Positions 38,047 to 55,773 of a DNA stretch of 64,000 nt are shown here, one piece after another. A program made the translations under genes and the position numbers. This DNA is from an uncultured virus (IMG/VR IMGVR_UViG_3300034157_000062). Its lineage: Duplodnaviria; Heunggongvirae; Uroviricota; Caudoviricetes. Numbering within the stretch: position 1 is the stretch's first letter; the number at the start of each line of letters is the position of its first letter. The stretch is taken from IMG/VR virus record IMGVR_UViG_3300034157_000062; one strand, given 5' to 3'. The notes beneath the pieces were generated by a model. That model did not search any database and was not told the origin of the DNA. It was given only the letters and a program-made list of their open reading frames with translations.

Positions 38047-38994
38047 TTATATTTTAAGCATTTTAATAACTGTAAGGTAATCCTTTAATGCTTCTGCTGA
38101 TTTAAATTCATCTGTTGTTCCATTGTTTTCTAATCCCACACAACTTTCAATGAAATATGCAAATATTGGGTTATAAAAAACTTCATAGTTCTTTATTAAA
38201 TAATCAAGTACTATATTCTTTTCATTTATCGAAAAATTATAATTTTTTAAGATTGTGGGTTGAATTTCTTCATTATCTTTATGTTGAAGTTTTAATTTTA
38301 AATCAGATTCGGTACAAAGATATATATTATCAGAAACACTAATTAAATGAATGAATACCTTGTCGATAGTTGTTTTATAGAGTTGAATCTGATGTTTAAT
38401 GCTATCGTTTAATTTAATAACATCATCACCGACAAAGCTATCTAAATTAGCTATATCTATTATATAGTAAGGATTATCTTGTAAATATAAAACGTTACTC
38501 TTCATTGTGACATTATTAATAAAATTATTTACTTTTAATAACCTAATCGTAGCATCTTGCCCCATCGTGGCACTACGAAGGCAATAAGAACCACACAATG
38601 GAATATTAATATTATCAATAAAGTCGTCATGAAAAAATTCTGTTTTTAAAATATTTTTAATATGACGATTAAAATAAGTGTTTAAGAATTTTATTCCATC
38701 TATCTCAATTGTTTTATAATTATTCTCAGGTACACAAATAGGATTTAAAGCAATTAAATTACCTGCTGATCTTACTCTAATGTTGATTCCATTTATACCT
38801 TTTGATAGATGGATATCACTTATGATGGGATGTTTTAATAGTATATAGCTTAAAACATCTTTAAGCTCTTCTTTTGTTTTTGTATTGTAGTAAGTCTTAT
38901 TTTTACAAATAAATTCAATAGCCGACATATCTGTTCCTAATAATTTTAGGAAACTATTTGCAACGGTCATCTCATGTTTTTCAATTGTTAACAT
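38047..38994 (-). CDS. paralog 4 of 4, PilT/GspE N-domain-like segment; Met(-4) motif
   Basis: SDIHLSKG...IRVR..G; ends YLTVIKMLKI. Confidence 0.7.
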   Translation of the reverse strand: MLTIEKHEMTVANSFLKLLGTDMSAIEFICKNKTYYNTKTKEELKDVLSYILLKHPIISDIHLSKGINGINIRVRSAGNLIALNPICVPENNYKTIEIDGIKFLNTYFNRHIKNILKTEFFHDDFIDNINIPLCGSYCLRSATMGQDATIRLLKVNNFINNVTMKSNVLYLQDNPYYIIDIANLDSFVGDDVIKLNDSIKHQIQLYKTTIDKVFIHLISVSDNIYLCTESDLKLKLQHKDNEEIQPTILKNYNFSINEKNIVLDYLIKNYEVFYNPIFAYFIESCVGLENNGTTDEFKSAEALKDYLTVIKMLKI

Positions 38995-39022
38995 ATTTAT
39001 TATTTCATCCTTATTATTCGAT

Positions 39023-39982
39023 TTATACTTTTATCATGTCAAGTGTTGTTAAATAATTTTTAAAGGCTTCTGGTGTCTTGAATTCTCCAATTAACGGGTC
39101 AAATTTTACTTGTGTCACATCTTCGATAAAAGCAGTAAAAATAGGGTCATAGAAATCGCTGTAATGTTTCAAGACATACTTTAAAATAGTTTTATTCATT
39201 TCTACCCTACCAATGCTGTAAGTATTAGGAATGATTACATTTATAGTATTGTTTCCCATGTATTCTAAAACAATTTTAATTTTGTTATATTTATAGATAT
39301 TTAATTTACCTTTAAATTTATTAAACATTTTATCAAGTTTACTTTCATAAAGATCGATTTTAGTTTGTATTTCAGGTGTGAATGTAACACCACTATTATG
39401 AATAAAACCTCCATTTATTAACTCAGCTTCGATAGTATAAATCGGATTTTCTTTTATTTGCAGTATATTATAATTAATATCAGTAGAGGTGTTGTTTTTA
39501 TTTTTAAGTATTCTTGTAATCCCATCATGTCCACAAGATGAGCTTCTTAGTCTATACATGCCAAACATTGGTATATCTAGATCACTATAAAAATCATAAG
39601 TTTGTCCAGTTTCCATTGAACTTGGACCTCTAATTTGTTCCAAAATATCTTTGAAGACATCTATAGCAAATGACTGGTTGTTAATCTTAGCTATTGCATA
39701 GTTATCATTAGCTGCAATGGTTATGGGGATGTCATGCATGTTACCATTTTTTCGAACTCTTAACCTTATTATTTTTTGATAAGAATCAAAGTTGAAATGA
39801 AGATCTGTTATATCCTTATAATTAACTAAAATATAAGTTAAAAAATGGTTAATAGTTTCTTTTGTTTTTGCATTGTAAAAAAAGTTATCTTTTTCAATAT
39901 AATCAATCGAACTTAAATCAGTATTAAGTAGACTTAAAAACTCATTTATTTTATCAAGATCATTGTTTTCAATTTTTAGCAT
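39023..39982 (-). CDS. paralog 3 of 4; Met(-4) motif
   Basis: TDLHF...RLRVRKNG; ends YLTTLDMIKV. Confidence 0.7.
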   Translation of the reverse strand: MLKIENNDLDKINEFLSLLNTDLSSIDYIEKDNFFYNAKTKETINHFLTYILVNYKDITDLHFNFDSYQKIIRLRVRKNGNMHDIPITIAANDNYAIAKINNQSFAIDVFKDILEQIRGPSSMETGQTYDFYSDLDIPMFGMYRLRSSSCGHDGITRILKNKNNTSTDINYNILQIKENPIYTIEAELINGGFIHNSGVTFTPEIQTKIDLYESKLDKMFNKFKGKLNIYKYNKIKIVLEYMGNNTINVIIPNTYSIGRVEMNKTILKYVLKHYSDFYDPIFTAFIEDVTQVKFDPLIGEFKTPEAFKNYLTTLDMIKV

Positions 39983-39999
39983 GACATCTATACCTCTTA

Positions 40000-40962
40000 T
40001 TATACTTTAATCATTTCTAGTGTTGTTAAGTAATTTTTGAAACATTCAGGATCTTTAAAATCTTCCAGTAATGAATCAGATTTTATTTCAGTGATGGTTT
40101 CTATCAGAGTCTTAAATATAGGCTTATAAAAAGATTTGTAGTTTTCTTTTAAATAAGCTAATAAAATTGAGCGGCTTCCATTATCTGATTTCAAGTAATG
40201 TTCGTAGTTACCATAAACATCAACAGTTATCGATCCAAATTTATCATATTCTAAACCAATAGATAATTTATTAGTCATATAATAACTGGTTACTTCACAA
40301 TGAGCATGTAACTTGTTTGTTTCTTCAATATAAAAATAGATATCATCTTCAATTTTTTTAGGTAGTTTGAAATGTGAGTTTTCAATAATCAATCCATCTT
40401 TAATTTTTAAATCAATTTTATAGAGAAGATTTCCATCTAAATTTAACCAATTAATGTTTGTAGCATAGAAAGGAAGAATTGTTGGTATTTTTATTATTCT
40501 AAATGCCGTAGAACTCTCCATCATTGCACTTATTATTACATATAAACCAAAATCTGGAATATACACTATGTCAGACGTATTGTTATCATCTATTTTTTTT
40601 GATATTAATCTTTGAATGTGGTCTTTAAAAAAAACTGTTGAAAATGAGAGTTTATTAATTCTTGCTGTTTCGTAATTATCAAATTTGTTAATTTCTATAT
40701 CAGTGAGGTGCCATGCTCCCATTTCTCTATACATAACATTAATCTTATTGGTGTTGTTGGTTTTAATAAGCAGGTCGCTTGTGTTGTTATAATTTTTCAG
40801 CATATAACTTAAAAAATCATGATCGGCTGTTAATTCAGCAGTAGTATATAATTCGTTATTTTTAATCACGTAATCAATAGATGAAAAATCAGTAGATATG
40901 ATATTTAAAAATTTATTAATTCTGTCTAGCTGCGTATCATTAATTTTTATCATTTTAAGCAC
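40000..40962 (-). CDS. paralog 2 of 4; Met(-4) motif
   Basis: ends YLTTLEMIKV. Confidence 0.7.
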   Translation of the reverse strand: MLKMIKINDTQLDRINKFLNIISTDFSSIDYVIKNNELYTTAELTADHDFLSYMLKNYNNTSDLLIKTNNTNKINVMYREMGAWHLTDIEINKFDNYETARINKLSFSTVFFKDHIQRLISKKIDDNNTSDIVYIPDFGLYVIISAMMESSTAFRIIKIPTILPFYATNINWLNLDGNLLYKIDLKIKDGLIIENSHFKLPKKIEDDIYFYIEETNKLHAHCEVTSYYMTNKLSIGLEYDKFGSITVDVYGNYEHYLKSDNGSRSILLAYLKENYKSFYKPIFKTLIETITEIKSDSLLEDFKDPECFKNYLTTLEMIKV

Positions 40963-40982
40963 CTTTTTAATCTAAGTTTTTG

Positions 40983-41981
40983 TTATACTTTCATCATTTC
41001 TAGTGTTGTTAGGTAATTTTTTAAACAGTCGGGGTCTTTAAAATTTCCATGCAATGTATCTATTTTAGTTTGTGTGACAGTTTCTATCAGGTTTTTAAAA
41101 ATAGGGTTATAGAATATGTGACAATTTTTTTTGATGTACTCTAAAAAATATTTTTTACCATTACATATCATGAAAACTGTTTCGTAATCACCGTAGACAT
41201 TCAAATTTATGTTTTCAAATTTGTCGTATTCTAAACCAATAGATAATTGATCATTTTTATAATACGCATTTTTTATGTAATATTTTGTAGTGATAGATCC
41301 CTCTTTGCACAGGATTGAGAACAATTTATTAATTTCATTAATGTAACAATAGATATCATCTTCGACTTGTTTAGGTAACTTGAAATTATGGTTTTCAACA
41401 ATTAATCCATCGACTAACTTAACATCAGTTTTGTATATAGGATTTTCGTCTATATTTAACCAATGAACAGTGCTTTGATTCTGAATTTTATCAGGCGTTA
41501 ATTTCATTAATTTAAATACAGATTCAGTCCCCATAACACCACTTCTTATTCTGTATAAACCACACTCTGGAATAAAGGCTATTACCAATTCATCATCATT
41601 CTGATGGTGTTTAGTCGTTATTTTTGATACATAATCTCTAAAACAATCAGTTGAACATGTGATTTCTGCGTTTGTGGCTGTCGTATAATTATCGTCATGA
41701 CTAATTAAAAGGTCCAGTAAATTATTTTTTATTCCATGTTCACGGGCAAATAGATTAATTTTCCCTTCATTTTTTTTATGCATCAATATTATTTCATTAG
41801 TGTTAGGATAATTTTTCAAAACATAACTCATTAAGTCATAGTCAGGAGGAAGTCTTTTGTTTGGATAAAATACGTTATTTTTGACCACATAATCAATAGA
41901 TGACAAATTAGTCAATAATCTACCTAAAAACGTATTAATTCTGGTCATTTCGTTGTCTTCAATCTTGATCATTGAGTTCAC
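40983..41981 (-). CDS. paralog 1 of 4; Met(-4) motif
   Basis: ends YLTTLEMMKV. Confidence 0.7.
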   Translation of the reverse strand: MNSMIKIEDNEMTRINTFLGRLLTNLSSIDYVVKNNVFYPNKRLPPDYDLMSYVLKNYPNTNEIILMHKKNEGKINLFAREHGIKNNLLDLLISHDDNYTTATNAEITCSTDCFRDYVSKITTKHHQNDDELVIAFIPECGLYRIRSGVMGTESVFKLMKLTPDKIQNQSTVHWLNIDENPIYKTDVKLVDGLIVENHNFKLPKQVEDDIYCYINEINKLFSILCKEGSITTKYYIKNAYYKNDQLSIGLEYDKFENINLNVYGDYETVFMICNGKKYFLEYIKKNCHIFYNPIFKNLIETVTQTKIDTLHGNFKDPDCLKNYLTTLEMMKV

Positions 41982-45462: not shown

Positions 45463-46134
45463 ATGACAAATGAAGTTAAAATACATGAAATAGACAATCT
45501 TTTAAACATTGATAAAAATATTTTAACAGCAATTTCTGAAGAGTCTTCTCATTTTATTCTGGATAATGTTGTTGAATTTTCTATGTTTAATACTAAACCT
45601 ATGGATAACTCACATTTAGCGATTACATTAAAAAACGATCAAGCTCCTTTTGTTTCTTATTTAGGAGATCCTTCTATTATTTCGCGTCACATATTAAAAC
45701 CTTATATAAAAGAAGATTATGATATACTTTTGCAAACCATTTTCAAGAAAATTAAAAATTATGGAAAATTTATTGGTATAGATTTTCAGAGATTTACAAA
45801 GATGAGGATGAATATCACACTGGCTGATGATTATCAATCTATTCAAGACATCGAATCTTTTGATTTAGTTTATATTATGCTAATAAAGACATATCAATAT
45901 TATCAAGTGAAAGCGGATATCAGTATTGTATTTAATGGAGAGTCTGTTTATGATTTTAAGTATACTCAAGGTGATTATGCAACACTTAAAATGGTGATTA
46001 ACTATAATGATTTAGATGGCTTCTTCATGAAATTTGCTGAATCCTATCGAGATGAAATTTCAAAAAAATTAGGAGTAGAACACTCAACCGATATGTGGAA
46101 AATGCTAGCACTGGCTGAAATGTTTGTTATCTAA
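45463..46134 (+). CDS. hypothetical protein, paralog of ORF 44760; Met(-4) motif
   Basis: ends LALAEMFVI. Confidence 0.75.
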   Translation: MTNEVKIHEIDNLLNIDKNILTAISEESSHFILDNVVEFSMFNTKPMDNSHLAITLKNDQAPFVSYLGDPSIISRHILKPYIKEDYDILLQTIFKKIKNYGKFIGIDFQRFTKMRMNITLADDYQSIQDIESFDLVYIMLIKTYQYYQVKADISIVFNGESVYDFKYTQGDYATLKMVINYNDLDGFFMKFAESYRDEISKKLGVEHSTDMWKMLALAEMFVI

Positions 46135-46141
46135 TAGATAC

Positions 46142-46167
46142 AAAAAAACCGTAAATGAATACGGTTA
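46142..46167 (-). terminator. intrinsic terminator of the tRNA operon
   Basis: minus strand AACCGTA-TTCATT-TACGGTT-TTTTT. Confidence 0.7.
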
Positions 46168-46182
46168 TTGATGATTACAAAT

Positions 46183-46266
46183 TGGTGCGGAAAGTGGGAC
46201 TCGAACCCACACGCCTCTCGGCACTGGCTTCTAAGACCAGCGTGTCTACCATTCCACCATTTCCGC
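46183..46266 (-). tRNA. tRNA-Leu(TAG)
   Basis: cloverleaf, CTGGT-CTTAGAA-GCCAG, long variable arm, A73, encoded CCA. Confidence 0.95.
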
Positions 46267-46323
46267 ATAGACATTAACACTTCTTTTAAATATAGTTTAA
46301 ATAAACGTTTATTTTGTAAGAAA

Positions 46324-46404
46324 GTATTGAAGCTGCCTAGGATTCGAACCTATATCTTCCAATAGCACTTTTCCGCATCTTGCTTAGGATGGCAACTCCA
46401 ATAC
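46324..46404 (-). ncRNA. tRNA-like element with shrunken arms
   Basis: 14-bp terminal stem, intact T arm TAGG-TTCGAAT-CCTA, reduced D/anticodon/variable hairpins, no CCA. Confidence 0.5.
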
Positions 46405-46409
46405 AAATC

Positions 46410-46495
46410 TGGTGCCCGAAGACGGATTCGAACCGTCACTCCCTCACGGGAAGGGGATTTTAAGTCCCCCGCGTCTACCATTTCGCCATTCGGGC
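46410..46495 (-). tRNA. tRNA-Leu(TAA)
   Basis: GGGGA-CTTAAAA-TCCCC anticodon arm, ACCA end. Confidence 0.95.
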
Positions 46496-46506
46496 ATAAA
46501 AATCAG

Positions 46507-46604
46507 TAATTCAATATTTTAGAATGCATTTCAGCAAGCGTGTCTACCACTCCACCACCCCGTGTAAACACGAGAAAAGGATTCGAACCTTCGATATTGA
46601 ATTA
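46507..46604 (-). ncRNA. circularly permuted tRNA-Leu-like module
   Basis: 11-bp closing stem; order T arm, loop-closed 7-bp acceptor stem, Leu-type D arm, mini anticodon hairpin. Confidence 0.75.
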
Positions 46605-46608
46605 AATC

Positions 46609-46693
46609 TGGTCCCCGGAGCCGGACTCGAACCGGCACGCCTTTCAGCGGGAGATTTTAAGTCTCCTGTGTCTACCAATTCCACCATCCGGGG
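46609..46693 (-). tRNA. tRNA-Leu(TAA)
   Basis: GGAGA-CTTAAAA-TCTCC, ACCA end. Confidence 0.95.
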
Positions 46694-46712
46694 ATAAACA
46701 CATGTATCAATC

Positions 46713-46796
46713 TGGTGCGTTAGGTGAGACTCGAACTCACAATCCTTTCGGCACTGGCTTCTTAGACCAGCGTGTATACCATTCCACCACTAACGC
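46713..46796 (-). tRNA. tRNA-Leu(AAG)
   Basis: CTGGT-CTAAGAA-GCCAG, ACCA end. Confidence 0.93.
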
Positions 46797-46804
46797 ATAA
46801 TTTG

Positions 46805-46961
46805 TTACTTAGAACAGGAGTCGAACCTGTACGTTATAGAAGGCTATGCCTGTGTCTACCAATTCCACGACCTAATCATTTCTGCTTAGGGAAGGATTCG
46901 AACCTTCATCTATAACAAGAAGCTAGGCTTCTCGTGTCTACCACTTTCACCATCTAAGTAA
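46805..46961 (-). ncRNA. double tRNA-like RNA (permuted tRNA nested in the variable arm of a tRNA)
   Basis: two D arms and two T arms in order D-T-D-T with all connecting stems paired; see findings. Confidence 0.8.
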
Positions 46962-46963
46962 TC

Positions 46964-47047
46964 TGGTGCGGAAGGTGGGACTCGAACCCACACGCCTCAC
47001 GGCACTGGTTTCTAAGACCAGCAAGTCTACCATTTCATCACTTCCGC
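46964..47047 (-). tRNA. tRNA-Leu(TAG)
   Basis: CTGGT-CTTAGAA-ACCAG, ACCA end. Confidence 0.95.
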
Positions 47048-47069
47048 GTGATATTGCTTTACATCAATT

Positions 47070-47153
47070 TGGTGCCCCGAGGGAGACTCGAACTCCCACT
47101 CCTTTCGGAAGCGGATTTTGAATCCGCCGCGTCTACCATTCCGCCATCGGGGC
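47070..47153 (-). tRNA. tRNA-Leu(CAA)
   Basis: GCGGA-TTCAAAA-TCCGC, ACCA end. Confidence 0.95.
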
Positions 47154-47185
47154 TTATGTTGTAGCTACATTTGTTACTATAAATC

Positions 47186-47269
47186 TGGTGCGATTGGAGA
47201 GACTTGAACTCTCAATCCTTGCGGCATTGGCTTCTTAGACCAACGTGTATACCATTCCACCACAATCGC
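47186..47269 (-). tRNA. tRNA-Leu(AAG)
   Basis: TTGGT-CTAAGAA-GCCAA, ACCA end. Confidence 0.93.
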
Positions 47270-47272
47270 ATA

Positions 47273-47364
47273 TCTTAATGAGTAAAGGGACTCGAACCCT
47301 TACGCCTTTTAGGGGCATGTCTACGCTTAGACATTATGGCTACCATTACATCATACTCATAAGA
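47273..47364 (-). ncRNA. tRNA-Leu-like element with abnormal anticodon loop and no CCA
   Basis: acceptor ATGAGTA/TACTCAT, D arm, ATGTCTA-AGCG-TAGACAT, variable arm, AAGGG-TTCGAGT-CCCTT. Confidence 0.7.
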
Positions 47365-47455
47365 GGTTTGACTTTGATAATAGTGAGTTACAAATAATTA
47401 CTATGTTTCAAAGTTTCCAGTGGGAACCGGAGCAACCTAATTTTAAATCTTCATT

Positions 47456-47540
47456 TGGTGCGGAAGGTGAGACTTGAACTCACAATCAATTAAGAAACTG
47501 CTTTTGAGACAGTCGCGTTTACCAGTTTCGCCACATCCGC
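47456..47540 (-). tRNA. tRNA-Leu(CAA)
   Basis: ACTGT-CTCAAAA-GCAGT, ACCA end; one T-T mismatch in acceptor stem. Confidence 0.9.
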
Positions 47541-47592
47541 ATATTTATTTCTTGAAGCGTTTTTGTTTGTTTCCTTACTCTTCATGTTTAAC

Positions 47593-47621
47593 ATTCTATC
47601 AACTATATTCACCTTTGTCAA
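47593..47621 (-). promoter_or_regulatory. proximal sigma70 promoter of tRNA operon
   Basis: TTGACA-17 nt-TAGAAT with AT-rich upstream region. Confidence 0.75.
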
Positions 47622-47711
47622 TAACTATTTTAATTTATTTTAAAATATTTTCCTTTTGAATCAATGCTTTACGTTATTTATAGTTGTAGTTTATCCTAGA
47701 CATTCGCCCAT

Positions 47712-52555: not shown

Positions 52556-53305
52556 TTGAAAAAGCGAATACGATACGCCAAACCCATTACAGTTGATGAA
52601 TTAGAGCATATCATTTTCAAAGTTGGTAAAACTGCAGTATTTGATGAAATAGGACTACAAGGAAAATTATTCAAACAAGCAGGCTTCATTGCAATCCCCG
52701 CCGTCACCGATTGTGAATATTACTTTAAAGATATGGGTGAACATTTATTACTTATAGCTGTTGAAGGTATTGTCAACACAAAACAAGTTTATATGTCAAG
52801 AAAATCATTGATATTAAACAATCCAAGAAATTTAAACATCTTAAAGAATTTAAACGATGATAATTATATTCATACACTATCAACCGTAGGTGATTCAGAA
52901 GAAACGGCTATCGGTAACGAGTTCTATATCAAGAGTAATACGAAACCTTGCAAAGAGGTATTCGACTCGCCTAAATACTTAAATGTTGAAGAATCTAATT
53001 TCACGTATGAAGTTTTTAAATATCAAGATTTCAAATACCGTATAGAACAAATATGGGTGACGGGTGTTATTGATGTACAATACATTTCGAATGAAGACAA
53101 TAATAACCTTATTGTGACTGATCTATCATTCTCAGAATATGGAACGTTGATATCTTACGCAGTGGAGAATAAGAAAGGTTCTATTAAATCGACCAACCTC
53201 AATTCACTGATTGATACCAGTCATGTCAATATAGATAACTATCATCTATTCTTTCAGAAGATAAATAAAGAAACACTCACAGTTATTGAAATGTTAATTG
53301 AATAA
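52556..53305 (+). CDS. paralog 1 of 4 (DNYHLF family); Met(-4) motif
   Basis: IDNYHLFFQK...VIEMLIE. Confidence 0.7.
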   Translation: MKKRIRYAKPITVDELEHIIFKVGKTAVFDEIGLQGKLFKQAGFIAIPAVTDCEYYFKDMGEHLLLIAVEGIVNTKQVYMSRKSLILNNPRNLNILKNLNDDNYIHTLSTVGDSEETAIGNEFYIKSNTKPCKEVFDSPKYLNVEESNFTYEVFKYQDFKYRIEQIWVTGVIDVQYISNEDNNNLIVTDLSFSEYGTLISYAVENKKGSIKSTNLNSLIDTSHVNIDNYHLFFQKINKETLTVIEMLIE

Positions 53306-53385
53306 TTAGGGGCTTAGGCTCCTTTTTTCATTGCTAAAAATAGCTTCCATGTGGTATAATAGTAAACTTTAATGAGGTTTACGTC

Positions 53386-54153
53386 ATGCTTTATATAAAA
53401 AATGTAGAACCCACTCTTGTTTTCGTAACGGCTGCTACCTCTCATGAACAATTGATTGGGTATATTAAAACAGTAGGAACTACCGTTTTTTTCAATAATT
53501 TCACCCAAGGAACTCTACGAGACTACCTTCATATTAATGGCTTCAAAAATGTGAGTTCATCAGTAAAAGTTCTTTATTATGCCGTGGTTGACAAAACTAT
53601 TCTGGTTATCCATCTTGATGGTCAGGTACTTAAAGAAAAGTATTGGGTTAAGTTGTCAGATGAAAACCTTGAGTATGTTGACACTTATGGCAAAGAAAAT
53701 GACGACTTCTTTATGTCATTTAGTACTGAACATATGTCGAATAACGATGTATATGAAATAACCACAGATGTTCCATTTTGTGAATATTTTGTTGTCATCA
53801 TGAATTCTGATAGCACTTCTAAATTCCCGCTGAGACGTGTTGATCTTTACTTTAAACATAAAACTAACCAATATTTGAGTGTTTCTATTTTCAACAAAAA
53901 AAATGGATTTGTTCAAATTCAATATGAGAACCCTGAACCCAATGGTGATTACTATTTTTCTGATTTTATGGAATTTGGGGCTGGCAGATTACTAGTCGCT
54001 AGAATCATAAATAGACACCGCCGAATAAATATAGATATCACCCCTGATTCTGAAATTGTTGATGTCAATGATATTAGTATAGATAATTTTCACTTATTTT
54101 GGGAAAAGTTAACTCCTGAACAACTTGTATTACTAGAAATGACCACTATATAA
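53386..54153 (+). CDS. paralog 2 of 4; Met(-4) motif
   Basis: DNFHLFWEKLTPEQLVLLEMTTI. Confidence 0.75.
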   Translation: MLYIKNVEPTLVFVTAATSHEQLIGYIKTVGTTVFFNNFTQGTLRDYLHINGFKNVSSSVKVLYYAVVDKTILVIHLDGQVLKEKYWVKLSDENLEYVDTYGKENDDFFMSFSTEHMSNNDVYEITTDVPFCEYFVVIMNSDSTSKFPLRRVDLYFKHKTNQYLSVSIFNKKNGFVQIQYENPEPNGDYYFSDFMEFGAGRLLVARIINRHRRINIDITPDSEIVDVNDISIDNFHLFWEKLTPEQLVLLEMTTI

Positions 54154-54167
54154 TTAGGAAAAATATT

Positions 54168-54950
54168 ATGATTGACTTAAAAAACATAGAGATGAATCTT
54201 ATTACATTAGACTCTGAAAATTTTAATGTTAATGAATTTTACAAATACATTCACAAGGTTGAAGTTTGTATGGCTTTCATAAATTTTGATAAATTCATGT
54301 TAGATGACTTATTTATTAATGCTGGTTTTACAAAAATTACGGGAGCAGAAAGTCCTCATTATTTTAAAATTATGGATTCCTTTATATTTGTTATTTATAT
54401 TGAGGCATCGGCGGCAAATTTTGTGATGCTTGAAAAATATTTTCTGATCAATTCAGAAAGAAATCTTTCAACTGTTAAGGCATTTGTACATAAAACTTTC
54501 AATGATGGTAATTTTGCAGATTTTCATAGTGATAGTGACGTATTTGATTATAAACTTTACCCAGAATCATTAGACATGCCATTTTATGTAAATTATCTTG
54601 TTCGATCTGCCTATGCTGTGCCGAAGCTTCTTCGTGTAGACTTAGGATTAAAGTATGGAAATGATAAATTTATGATCGCTTCTATTTTTGATAGAGATGA
54701 TGAATGTATACAGATAGCCTATGATACATATACAAAAGATTGTAATTATATGTATGCAGAATTCATTCAATTCGTAAATGAGAACGTTACAGATTTGAAA
54801 ATCTATACCCCACATAATCAGAAAACAATCTCTATAACACATTGTCTAGATGATTGTGATATAGATCTTATTACATTAGATAACTATCATCTTTTTTGGG
54901 AAAAATTAACATCTGAACAAATTTTATTGTTCGAAATGTCAGTTGTATAG
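54168..54950 (+). CDS. paralog 3 of 4; Met(-4) motif
   Basis: DNYHLFWEKLTSEQILLFEMSVV. Confidence 0.75.
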   Translation: MIDLKNIEMNLITLDSENFNVNEFYKYIHKVEVCMAFINFDKFMLDDLFINAGFTKITGAESPHYFKIMDSFIFVIYIEASAANFVMLEKYFLINSERNLSTVKAFVHKTFNDGNFADFHSDSDVFDYKLYPESLDMPFYVNYLVRSAYAVPKLLRVDLGLKYGNDKFMIASIFDRDDECIQIAYDTYTKDCNYMYAEFIQFVNENVTDLKIYTPHNQKTISITHCLDDCDIDLITLDNYHLFWEKLTSEQILLFEMSVV

Positions 54951-55017
54951 CTGATTGCTAGTATATATGGCAGTGAAAATTTGATAAGGTAGAGAACTTT
55001 AACGAGGGTTACACGGA

Positions 55018-55773
55018 ATGATGAATTTAAATAAAGTTAGTATGAAGCTAGATATTATAGATTCTGTCGCATGGAACATGGACTCATTTAACACGTCCAT
55101 ACAAAAACCAGCCACAAGTGTTTTCTTTAATAATTTTACATCACATGATTTAGATAGGTTTTTAAAAGAATCTGGCTTTGAGCAAATCGAGAATTTAAAG
55201 CTTTTTTATTTTAAGAAGGTTAATGACTTTATATTGATTATCAAATTAGAATCGAGACATATTAAAGAAAAGTATCTTATTCATTATACCGAAGATAATT
55301 TTGCTTACATACGAGACACAAAGAACTATGAGCAATCTTTTGAATCATTCCATAATGATGAGAAAAGAAATCACACACTTTATCCAGAAGGCGTAGAAAC
55401 ACCTTTTTATGAAAATTTCATGGTAAGGGAGAATTATGGAGATCCCACTTTAATCCGAACAGATGTTGGTTTTAAATATTTAAAAAATCGGTTTGTGATT
55501 GCGTCTCTTTATGAAAAGCATAAGAAACAAATTCAGATTTGTTATGATGATTACAGTCATAATCCAGATTGTATTCTTGCGGATGCTATTGGCTTTATTG
55601 GACAAGAGTTGACTGATGTAAAAATACTGAGTACAAAAAGTGGTAAACGGATATCGTTATTAGATCATAAAGATGTATTTGATGTAAGCGATGTCACCAT
55701 TGAAAACTTTCATCTTTTCTGGGAGCGTTATACAACAGAAGAACAAACCTTACTGGCAATGTTGCTGATATGA
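55018..55773 (+). CDS. paralog 4 of 4; Met(-4) motif
   Basis: ENFHLFWERYTTEEQTLLAMLLI. Confidence 0.75.
   Translation: MMNLNKVSMKLDIIDSVAWNMDSFNTSIQKPATSVFFNNFTSHDLDRFLKESGFEQIENLKLFYFKKVNDFILIIKLESRHIKEKYLIHYTEDNFAYIRDTKNYEQSFESFHNDEKRNHTLYPEGVETPFYENFMVRENYGDPTLIRTDVGFKYLKNRFVIASLYEKHKKQIQICYDDYSHNPDCILADAIGFIGQELTDVKILSTKSGKRISLLDHKDVFDVSDVTIENFHLFWERYTTEEQTLLAMLLI

Follow-up and report, generated by a model that had tools for sequence, protein, structure and literature searches.

The window analysed here is a 64,000-nt stretch of DNA, taken at its full length, from an uncultured virus (IMG/VR record IMGVR_UViG_3300034157_000062). On its minus strand, at positions 46805..46961, an array of leucine transfer RNA (tRNA-Leu) genes includes a 157-nt double tRNA-like element, in which the acceptor strands of two tRNA-Leu-like units are exchanged. 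Since the swapped pairing has been kept, with double changes, between homologs of 63% identity, the element is very probably a selected, structured, non-decoding RNA. The strand swap is solid in all four distinct sequence variants, and the join of the two units through the variable arm is solid only in the window type.

A double tRNA-like element with swapped acceptor strands

Viewed linearly, the element consists of two tandem tRNA-Leu-like units with 6 nt between them. The outer acceptor, of 7–9 bp, forms between the 5' strand of unit 1 and the 3' strand of unit 2; the inner acceptor forms between the other two strands, 3' of unit 1 and 5' of unit 2, and is sealed by a loop of 3–6 nt. An earlier note on this DNA, made from the sequence alone, had described a tRNA that carries a second, circularly permuted tRNA. 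Every segment that it listed is present at 46961..46805 of the minus strand, including the 3-nt loops and the lack of CCA, and all four distinct homologs preserve the fold, with compensatory changes at many pairs. In RNAfold, both the minimum free energy (MFE) structure and the centroid are the nested double cloverleaf that the note had drawn, at -46.9 kcal/mol. Shuffled sequences had a mean of -36.6 kcal/mol (z -2.73), and 0/200 shuffles were as stable.

The tRNA-Leu(AAG) gene beside the element is unusual enough to find relatives and served as a probe string. It recovered 19 metagenome loci and 4 IMG/VR loci, nearly all of them with large tRNA-Leu arrays. Related loci are designated below by L numbers. 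In the slot between tRNA-Leu(UAG) and tRNA-Leu(AAG), a counterpart of the element was found in L002 (equal to L018), in L015/L016 (one contig) and in L021 (equal to L024). There are thus six copies with four distinct sequences, that of the window included, and in every case the copy sits at the corresponding slot of a related tRNA-Leu operon in a metagenome contig. A covariance model (R1) was built from these homologs, as the earlier note had proposed, and was searched over 22 sources (189,364 nt). It returned exactly six copies, at 153–173 bits (168.2 bits for the window); the next best match, at 54.2 bits, was an ordinary pair of tandem tRNAs. Other searches reached little further. Phage and plasmid searches with blastn gave ordinary tRNA-Leu matches only, covering at most 22% of the query; exact and degenerate DNA patterns in IMG/VR found one related contig only, and an alignment-based protein search gave the same contig. 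A search of species genomes based on Fpg returned one unrelated Chloroflexota locus only, and an Atlas search with the flanking ORFan gave weak leads only (at most 0.92).

Four helices could be aligned among the variants with MAFFT: the 9-bp outer acceptor, D arm A and both T arms, comprising 22 pairs (A and B mark the arms of the two units). All 88 cells, each being one pair in one variant, are standard pairs, and 7 of the 22 pairs have changed on both sides among the four variants. The covariation score was 0.424, whereas shuffled alignments gave 0.223 ± 0.045 and 0/500 of them reached the observed value; the covariation check proposed in the earlier note came out in favor of compensatory change. 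As a slide control, the 3' partners were moved by 1–3 columns, whereupon pairing fell to 37.5–50% of cells. The inner helices were misaligned by MAFFT, and each sequence was parsed by hand using segment lengths. In this parse, which covers ten helices in the four variants, 186/190 cells are paired; the unpaired ones are one G.A in the inner acceptor of the window and three cells in that of L021. Counted in register, the inner acceptor forms 6/7 pairs in the window, 7/7 in L002, 7/7 in L015 and 4/7 in L021.

Comparison of the window with L002 gives the clearest view of the double changes. Among the fixed-length helices, 14 of 32 pairs differ between the two; all 14 are paired in L002, and 12 have changed on both sides. 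These 12 are spread over the whole structure, with two in the outer acceptor, one each in D arms A and B, two each in T arms A and B, and four in the inner acceptor, where the window's G.A reads G-C in L002. The earlier note had argued for selection rather than decay, and the 186/190 paired cells together with these 12 double changes bear this out.

We also compared the swapped arrangement with pairing of the acceptor strands in cis. Swapped pairing forms 13/14 pairs in the window, 14/14 in L002, 14/14 in L015 and 11/14 in L021 (13 with a bulge), while cis pairing forms 11/14, 9/14, 10/14 and 8/14, respectively. The totals are 52/56 for swapped pairing and 38/56 for cis pairing, with cis being worse in 4/4 variants. 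The energy of the whole element was also set against that of its summed halves: -45.9 vs -34.3 kcal/mol in the window, -44.4 vs -31.5 kcal/mol in L002, -48.0 vs -36.5 kcal/mol in L015 and -36.2 vs -26.4 kcal/mol in L021. The whole element is more stable than its separate halves by 9.8–12.9 kcal/mol in 4/4 variants.

Both units keep the tertiary bases of a tRNA in 4/4 variants, namely U8, GG in the D loop, TTCRA in the T loop and T at position 48; these are the elbow invariants of canonical tRNA (U8, G18G19, T54-C56, A58 and position 48). The D loops of both units in the window read GGTAGA. Both anticodon arms have shrunk to vestiges. None of the four variants has a canonical 7-nt anticodon loop with U33, the loops at this place being 3–5 nt long; the sole 7-nt loop reading is a tRNA-Gln(ttg) call by ARAGORN in L002 and L015, in which position 33 is A. 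Neither acceptor has an encoded CCA in any of the four variants. The inner acceptor is closed by its loop, and the outer one is followed by N-ACA tails, which read AACAAA, AACATA, GACAAA and AACATA in the four variants (A-ACA-AAT in the window). The view of the earlier note that the element is non-decoding is thus reasonable, as no variant has a 7-nt loop with U33 and none encodes CCA. What stands in place of the anticodon arms is variable. The stem of the outer-unit hairpin reads AGAAGC/GCTTCT, AGAAGT/ACTTCT or AGGGT/GCCCT among the variants, and the mini hairpin of the inner unit has the counterparts AGC-TTAG-GCT in L021 and GGAC-ATTGA-GTCC in L002 and L015.

Across the variants, the helices and elbow bases are constant while the remaining positions drift. 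Identity of the element with that of the window is 63% for L002, 67% for L015 and 87% for L021. For the flanking tRNA-Leu(UAG), the window shares 93% identity with L002 and 92% with L015, and for the flanking tRNA-Leu(AAG) 100% and 99%. Standard gene finders see the halves in part. ARAGORN called 46960-46882 of the window 'tRNA-Pyl(cta)', and the Rfam tRNA model RF00005 (gathering score 29) scored the two halves at 29.6 and 23.4 bits in the window, 38.3 and 28.4 bits in L002, and 41.8 and 31.2 bits in L015, with no match at E <= 1 in L021. This carries a warning for annotation, as such halves get labelled tRNA-Pyl(CUA), tRNA-Gln or 'tRNA-???'.

The earlier note had further claimed that the two bodies are joined through the variable arm. 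This part holds for two of the variants, the window with a variable-arm stem of 8 bp and L021 with one of 7 bp. The claim is weaker for L002 and L015, where a possible stem of 5 bp (GTCAT/ATGAC, with one T-A to C-G change) can be drawn that is absent from the MFE structure.

Table. Segments of the double tRNA-like element, in 5' to 3' order along the minus strand, followed by the features of the operon that contains it
Feature	Letters (linker that follows)	Coordinates	Strand	Remark
Outer acceptor, 5' strand	TT-ACTTAGA (TG)	46953..46961	minus	9/9 pairs with 46813-46805; 2/9 pairs changed on both sides among 4 variants
D arm, outer unit	GTG-AAAGTGGTAGA-CAC (G)	46934..46950	minus	3/3 pairs in 4/4 variants; first pair G-C to A-U
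Hairpin at the outer unit's anticodon-arm place	AGAAGC-CTA-GCTTCT (T)	46918..46932	minus	6 bp, 3-nt loop; a hairpin in 4/4 variants
Shared variable-arm stem, 5' strand	GTTATAGA (T)	46909..46916	minus	8/8 pairs with 46840-46833
T arm, inner unit	GAAGG-TTCGAAT-CCTTC	46891..46907	minus	5/5 pairs in 4/4 variants; 2 pairs changed on both sides
Sealed inner acceptor hairpin	CCTAAGC-AGAAAT-GATTAGG (TC)	46871..46890	minus	one G.A mismatch in the window
D arm, inner unit	GTG-GAATTGGTAGA-CAC	46852..46868	minus	identical to the D arm of tRNA-Leu(UAA) at 46693-46609
Mini hairpin at the inner unit's anticodon-arm place	AGGC-ATA-GCCT	46841..46851	minus	from the segment parse
Shared variable-arm stem, 3' strand	TCTATAAC (GT)	46833..46840	minus	from the segment parse
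T arm, outer unit	ACAGG-TTCGACT-CCTGT	46814..46830	minus	paired in 4/4 variants; 2 pairs changed on both sides
Outer acceptor, 3' strand	TCTAAGT-AA	46805..46813	minus	then CAAATTAT; tail A-ACA, not A-CCA
tRNA operon		46183..47540	minus	8 canonical tRNA-Leu and 4 non-canonical tRNA-like elements (ARAGORN, Rfam, sequence)
Sigma-70-like promoter, best of the region	TTGACA-17-TAGAAT, with TG	47593..47621	minus	11/12 matches; consensus match only
Intrinsic-terminator-like hairpin and T run, after the last tRNA		46147..46166	minus	sequence scan

Permuted units of the same design as the inner unit also occur by themselves. At 46604-46507 (minus strand) the window has a stand-alone permuted unit built from a closing stem of 11 bp, a T arm, an acceptor of 7 bp sealed by a tetraloop, a D arm and a short hairpin region. 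The inner unit of the element, with its T arm, loop-sealed acceptor and D arm, has the design of this stand-alone unit, and its T arm in the window (GAAGG-TTCGAAT-CCTTC) equals that of the stand-alone unit. The permuted-tRNA picture of the earlier note thus gains support from units of matching design in the arrays themselves. We found seven stand-alone copies, six of them distinct, in six arrays: the window, L002, L011, L015, L021 and, twice, L019. Their closing stems, of 8–11 bp, are unrelated to one another and complementary within each unit (TAATTCAATAT, ACGTAATAT, AATGTTGT), and their acceptor hairpins differ and are still paired (TCTCGTG/CACGGGG, TCTCATG/AATGGGG, TCCGGTG/AACCGGG and TGTTGCT/GGCGATG).

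The simplest origin of the element is a tandem duplication of a tRNA-Leu-type gene. Just after such a duplication, cis and swapped pairings would have been equally possible, and selection would then have fixed the swapped form. The relationships of the two kinds of unit are in conflict, for by the element the window is nearest to L021 (87%) and by the stand-alone unit it is nearest to L002 (98%); this suggests that array cassettes are exchanged between genomes. Flanking-protein similarity links the window to the L002 contig, at 52–61% identity in a comparison confined to these two.

The tRNA-Leu operon, related arrays and their replicon

The operon has two canonical tRNA-Leu genes each for CAA, AAG, UAG and UAA, and 8/8 encode CCA. 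The element lies 3–4 nt past the CCA of the upstream tRNA and 9–10 nt ahead of the next tRNA, a spacing that is normal for the array. Further unusual units were seen in the same operon. At 47360-47277 (minus) is a tRNA-like gene that lacks CCA and has 8 nt in its 'anticodon' loop, reported by ARAGORN as tRNA-???(agcg); it is conserved in L002, L018 and L021, with differing loop letters. A mini tRNA-like RNA at 46403-46325 (minus) has a 13-bp acceptor-type stem, a D-like hairpin with GG, no anticodon arm and a 4-bp T arm with a TTCGAAT loop (fold z -2.55). It has no counterpart in L002, where a 149-aa open reading frame (ORF) is found at its place. The spacer at 47455-47361 (minus, ~95 nt) has a branched hairpin fold with a z of only -1.18. 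In the gap past the first tRNA-Leu(CAA) of L011, the letters of the outer stem differ from those of this spacer and still pair (by eye); the spacer is possibly another small structured RNA.

Remodelled tRNA genes are common in the related arrays as well. In L007, L008, L009, L010, L012 and L013 we observed 'tRNA-Leu' genes of class-I length (77–80 nt), with a short variable region, Leu anticodons and CCA, and also CCA-less tRNA-like units of 94–105 nt whose anticodon and variable regions are remodelled. A structured element of ~140 nt with a long closing stem lies between tRNA-Leu genes at L015 3366-3504, L019 3867-4005 and L021 3288-3427, and is not found in the window. An ORF of ~125–149 aa without a Pfam family is embedded in the tRNA-Leu arrays of L002 (10799-11248, minus), L011, L015 and L020, and has been lost from the window; a different ORF of ~47 aa, with a strong Shine-Dalgarno motif, occurs in the arrays of L007, L009, L010 and L013. 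On a different and GC-richer contig, a GC-rich, highly structured stretch of 470–530 nt lies between tRNA genes (L017 2432-2957 and L023 1492-1958). tRNA-like T-arm/ACCA ends are present in it, and it might include a tmRNA-like (transfer-messenger RNA) or permuted RNA.

As read from the sequence, the gene expression signals of the window are prokaryotic. AGGAG/GGAG-like motifs stand ahead of most of the 60 listed ORF starts (by eye), and 20 terminator-like sites were counted where 5.6 ± 2.6 were expected. A giant virus of eukaryotes was considered and rejected: the Mimivirus promoter word AAAATTGA occurs 15 times where 18.1 are expected and so shows no enrichment, AGGAG/GGAG-like motifs are common and terminator-like sites are enriched. 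Most ORFs of the window have no Pfam or PHROG family. Those with families comprise UvdE, GAPDH, asparagine synthase, a thioredoxin-reductase-like protein, Fpg, a ProRS-like protein and a nucleoside deoxyribosyltransferase. Two sets of four tandem paralogous ORFans were also noted, one at 38047-41981 (minus; ~315–332 aa) and one at 52556-55773 (plus; ~250–260 aa), neither with a Pfam family among those scanned.

A syntenic relative of the window is the 181-kb IMG/VR contig G001, which is labelled 'provirus'. Its loci L032-L040 hold a cluster of genes linked to tRNA and to conflict. The RNA-repair genes among them encode RtcB, a 783-aa fusion of Metallophos and RNA_lig_T4_1 (phosphoesterase/T4-type RNA ligase) and a HAD_SAK_2 domain, and the others include class I and class II aminoacyl-tRNA synthetases, HipA_C (a HipA-like kinase), ART-PolyVal, Sir2 and RNase T. 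G001 has a second tRNA array (Ala/Arg/Met), which has the same promoter-like block upstream as the window operon and has its own anticodon-less tRNA-like RNAs. Among these are two tRNA-Ala-like genes in L030 (~711-785 and ~890-970) with a 4-nt loop in place of the anticodon loop, in which G3:U70, A73 and an encoded CCA are kept (by eye); judged by these features, their RNAs could be chargeable without decoding.

The replicon may be a huge phage, a provirus in a small genome or a small-genome cell. In favor of a phage, a 180-aa protein of G001 has 40–52% identity to proteins of the jumbo phages RsoM2USA, XacN1 and GAP32 and of a 635-kb uncultured phage, with query coverage of 80% or more in 29/29 matching records. 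Against an ordinary phage, a PHROG scan of 50 window ORFs and 75 G001 ORFs gave no structural or packaging family. Related arrays lie on long metagenome contigs (L018, 1.86 Mb; L015, 1.54 Mb; L007, 866 kb; L020, 604 kb), and G001 has the same array as the 1.86-Mb contig.

Possible roles of the RNA

Non-decoding tRNA-shaped RNAs are known, among them YrlA, T4 rnaC and viral tRNA-like structures. To our knowledge, the partners of such RNAs are mostly unknown. Because the element has no codon-reading loops, it is probably a mimic of tRNA rather than an RNA with a role in translation. Herein we propose, tentatively as regards the mechanism as a whole, that it acts as a decoy, competitor or tether. 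The element would be co-transcribed with the tRNA-Leu genes, since they share a predicted promoter and terminator and are separated by spacers of 3–10 nt. It would be excised by tRNA-processing enzymes and would take the shape of two tRNA Ls set back to back, offering a pair of elbow and acceptor/T-arm surfaces to one or more tRNA-binding factors, with no decoding. By analogy with the YrlA RNA of M. smegmatis, RNase P may open the sealed inner acceptor to give a two-piece RNA, and the RNA could exist as two base-paired pieces of ~80 nt rather than as one 157-mer.

The most likely setting for such a mimic is a conflict over tRNA, for example with tRNA-targeting nucleases, because tRNA arrays, tRNA-repair genes and aminoacyl-tRNA synthetases are plentiful in G001, and because the arrays hold many remodelled tRNAs. 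The dyad of their shared helix relates the two units, and we speculate that such a geometry would suit a dimeric partner. A more specific form of this idea is doubtful. In it, a purpose-built, two-fold-symmetric mimic, made of two sealed, anticodon-less tRNA-Leu bodies that a common variable-arm helix keeps back to back, would engage both sites of a dimeric tRNA-binding enzyme, such as a tRNA-targeting nuclease of the host or a processing enzyme, as a high-avidity decoy or inhibitor in a conflict over tRNA between phage and host. If it were true, this would be the first case in nature of a strand-swapped tRNA dimer that has a function.

Several observations weigh against selection of the fold or against the mimic proposed here. 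The related arrays L011, L019 and L020 lack the element, which is therefore dispensable; in L020 the slot is a gap of 21 nt only. The inner stem is imperfect in two variants, as that of L021 needs a bulged A (and then has 6 pairs) and that of the window has the G.A mismatch. In L002 and L015 the MFE structure omits the variable-arm stem, and a rival 6-bp hairpin takes its part there. The covariation rests on four distinct sequences that fall into two subgroups and so represent few independent events, and the structure that was tested had been derived from those same four sequences. RNase P might cut the element poorly, given its outer stem of 9 bp and its lack of CCA. Finally, no TROVE (Ro60/Rsr) domain was detected in 57/63 window ORFs or in the 181-kb G001, while two control genomes were positive.

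Four other explanations were weighed against a selected mimic. One holds that the element is a processing or stability module, a retired tRNA pair kept, within a densely packed polycistronic tRNA precursor, as a compact unit recognisable by RNase P, which has no partner of its own and which would let the neighbouring tRNAs mature and stop free acceptor strands from mispairing. It fits the spacing of the element, which is normal for the array, the conservation of acceptor, T and D elements only while the hairpin sequences drift, and the lack of any visible replacement in the related arrays without the element. This explanation nevertheless leaves the swapped topology, the sealed inner acceptor and the maintenance of both elbows through 12 double changes unexplained, and at the L020 slot a plain short spacer suffices. 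Stand-alone sealed units, moreover, recur with wholly different closing stems, which suggests that the sealed module is selected for itself. We regard the processing module as rather unlikely. A simpler account would see decaying tandem tRNA pseudogenes, whose nested fold is a by-product of similar acceptor stems and chance complementarity. The acceptors of the window do have a common TTAG/CTAA core, so that cis pairing (11/14) is not far from swapped pairing (13/14); the Rfam tRNA model still matches some halves, in the window, L002 and L015; and the arrays are full of odd tRNA-like remnants among which the element is dispensable. Decay would not predict that 186/190 cells are paired at 63% identity, that 12 double changes keep pairing, that cis is worse in 4/4 variants or that the elbows are invariant while the rest drifts, and the shuffle and slide controls fall far below the observed pairing. 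The pseudogene reading is already disfavoured, and we hold it to be very improbable.

The remaining two explanations give the RNA a different activity. The element could yield a two-piece, chargeable, non-decoding tRNA-Leu-like RNA: RNase P would cut the outer 5' end and the inner loop, the 3' tails would be trimmed and CCA added, and pieces of ~75–85 nt, paired as a heterodimer, would be leucylated at one or both acceptors for a non-ribosomal reaction. Bacterial LeuRS (leucyl-tRNA synthetase) recognizes A73 and the elbow, not the anticodon, and in 3/4 variants an A follows the outer acceptor, the exception being L002, which has G. The anticodon-less tRNA-Ala-like genes with G3:U70 and CCA in the second array of G001 (by eye) offer a parallel. 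The inner acceptor has 7–8 bp in 3/4 variants, and a study of YrlA (PMC4201824) describes a 7-bp sealed acceptor in M. smegmatis that is cut by RNase P and gains CCA. Against this, neither acceptor encodes CCA whereas 8/8 canonical neighbours do, the would-be 3' end is hidden in the 9-bp outer stem, scans of 57 window ORFs and 105 G001 ORFs showed no CCA-adding enzyme family, and no aminoacyl-tRNA-dependent transferase was found nearby. Such a charged RNA is improbable. The element might instead be a true Y RNA of the YrlA family that tethers Ro60/Rsr, with the outer tRNA-like unit replacing the handle. The inner unit does have the order of T arm, sealed acceptor and D arm, and RtcB is encoded in G001. 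In Salmonella the RtcB gene lies within the rsr-yrlBA-rtcBA operon. However, the YrlA family RF02553 gave no gathering-score match in the window and none at E <= 1 in 46100-47700, which spans the window operon, or in six related loci; no GNCGAA, as in the Ro60 motif GNCGAAN0-1G, was seen in the 157 nt, which were read by eye with no pattern search; and the lack of a TROVE domain in the scanned ORFs of the window and in G001 speaks against it as well. A genuine Y RNA is therefore the least credible of these explanations and extremely improbable.

We therefore continue to favor, tentatively, a selected tRNA mimic. The element indicates that two tRNA bodies can fuse via swapped acceptor strands and a common variable-arm helix and be kept so through compensatory changes. 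If a partner is found, it would become a tractable model of how mobile elements manipulate tRNA-recognising enzymes and a natural scaffold that displays two tRNA elbows.

Comparison with known RNA families

Sealed single tRNA mimics are already known in the form of YrlA. The strand-swapped, two-headed form joined at the variable arm was not found with Rfam in the window and six related loci, and no description of this architecture turned up in the literature, in searches that were not aimed at that design. Integration scars at tRNA-Leu were considered and rejected, as scars would not yield loop-closed, complementary acceptor strands with compensatory changes.

A close likeness is to YrlA (RF02553). 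According to Chen et al. 2014 (PMC4201824), the tRNA-like domain of YrlA is composed of a T arm, a sealed 'AS' stem and a D arm with tRNA tertiary pairs, it is modified by the tRNA enzymes TruB and DusA, and YrlA occurs in phages as well as bacteria; in M. smegmatis the sealed stem has 7 bp and is cut by RNase P, with CCA added in vivo (PMC4201824). The inner unit of the element has the same order of T arm, sealed acceptor and D arm in 4/4 variants, as do the stand-alone copies, with the elbow invariants retained and a 15:48 Levitt pair possible. The stand-alone unit at 46604-46507 looks like a handle-less YrlA head. In contrast to YrlA, the element has no Ro60 handle; where the 'handle' would be, there is another complete tRNA-like body, whose acceptor is open and CCA-less. 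Furthermore, the closing helix takes the place of the variable arm, and the anticodon position still has a mini hairpin.

With its class II tRNA-Leu neighbours the element shares tRNA-Leu D arms and T arms, U8, the A after the outer acceptor and a helix at the position of the long variable arm. It differs from them in having no 7-nt anticodon loop, no CCA and acceptor pairing between units, and it changes faster, at 63% identity where the neighbours have 93–100%.

Cyanidioschyzon and other algae have tRNA genes of permuted order (PMC3978253), and two-piece permuted tmRNA (PMC3985003) is arranged likewise; in both, the 3' half, made of the T arm and the 3' acceptor strand, precedes the 5' half, made of the 5' acceptor strand and the D arm, with a short linker between them. 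The inner and stand-alone units likewise have the 3' half first and are joined at the acceptor. The products differ, in that algal permuted genes give decoding tRNAs and permuted tmRNA is charged with alanine and has CCA. The element has no anticodon loop, unlike the algal genes, and unlike tmRNA it has no CCA, G3:U70 or tag reading frame; ARAGORN reports no tmRNA in the window.

A further comparison is with bacteriophage T4, in whose tRNA cluster rnaC and rnaD (species 1 and 2) are annotated as stable-RNA genes (GenBank AF158101). The fold of rnaD is not tRNA-like. The likeness is to rnaC, which is also an extra non-tRNA unit in a tRNA cluster and has a fold that ends in a T arm and a closing stem. 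The rnaC fold differs in that it has a single T arm and lacks a D arm with GG, a second unit and a sealed acceptor. We regard T4 rnaC as a functional analogue of the element, a grouping by function and not a homology family.

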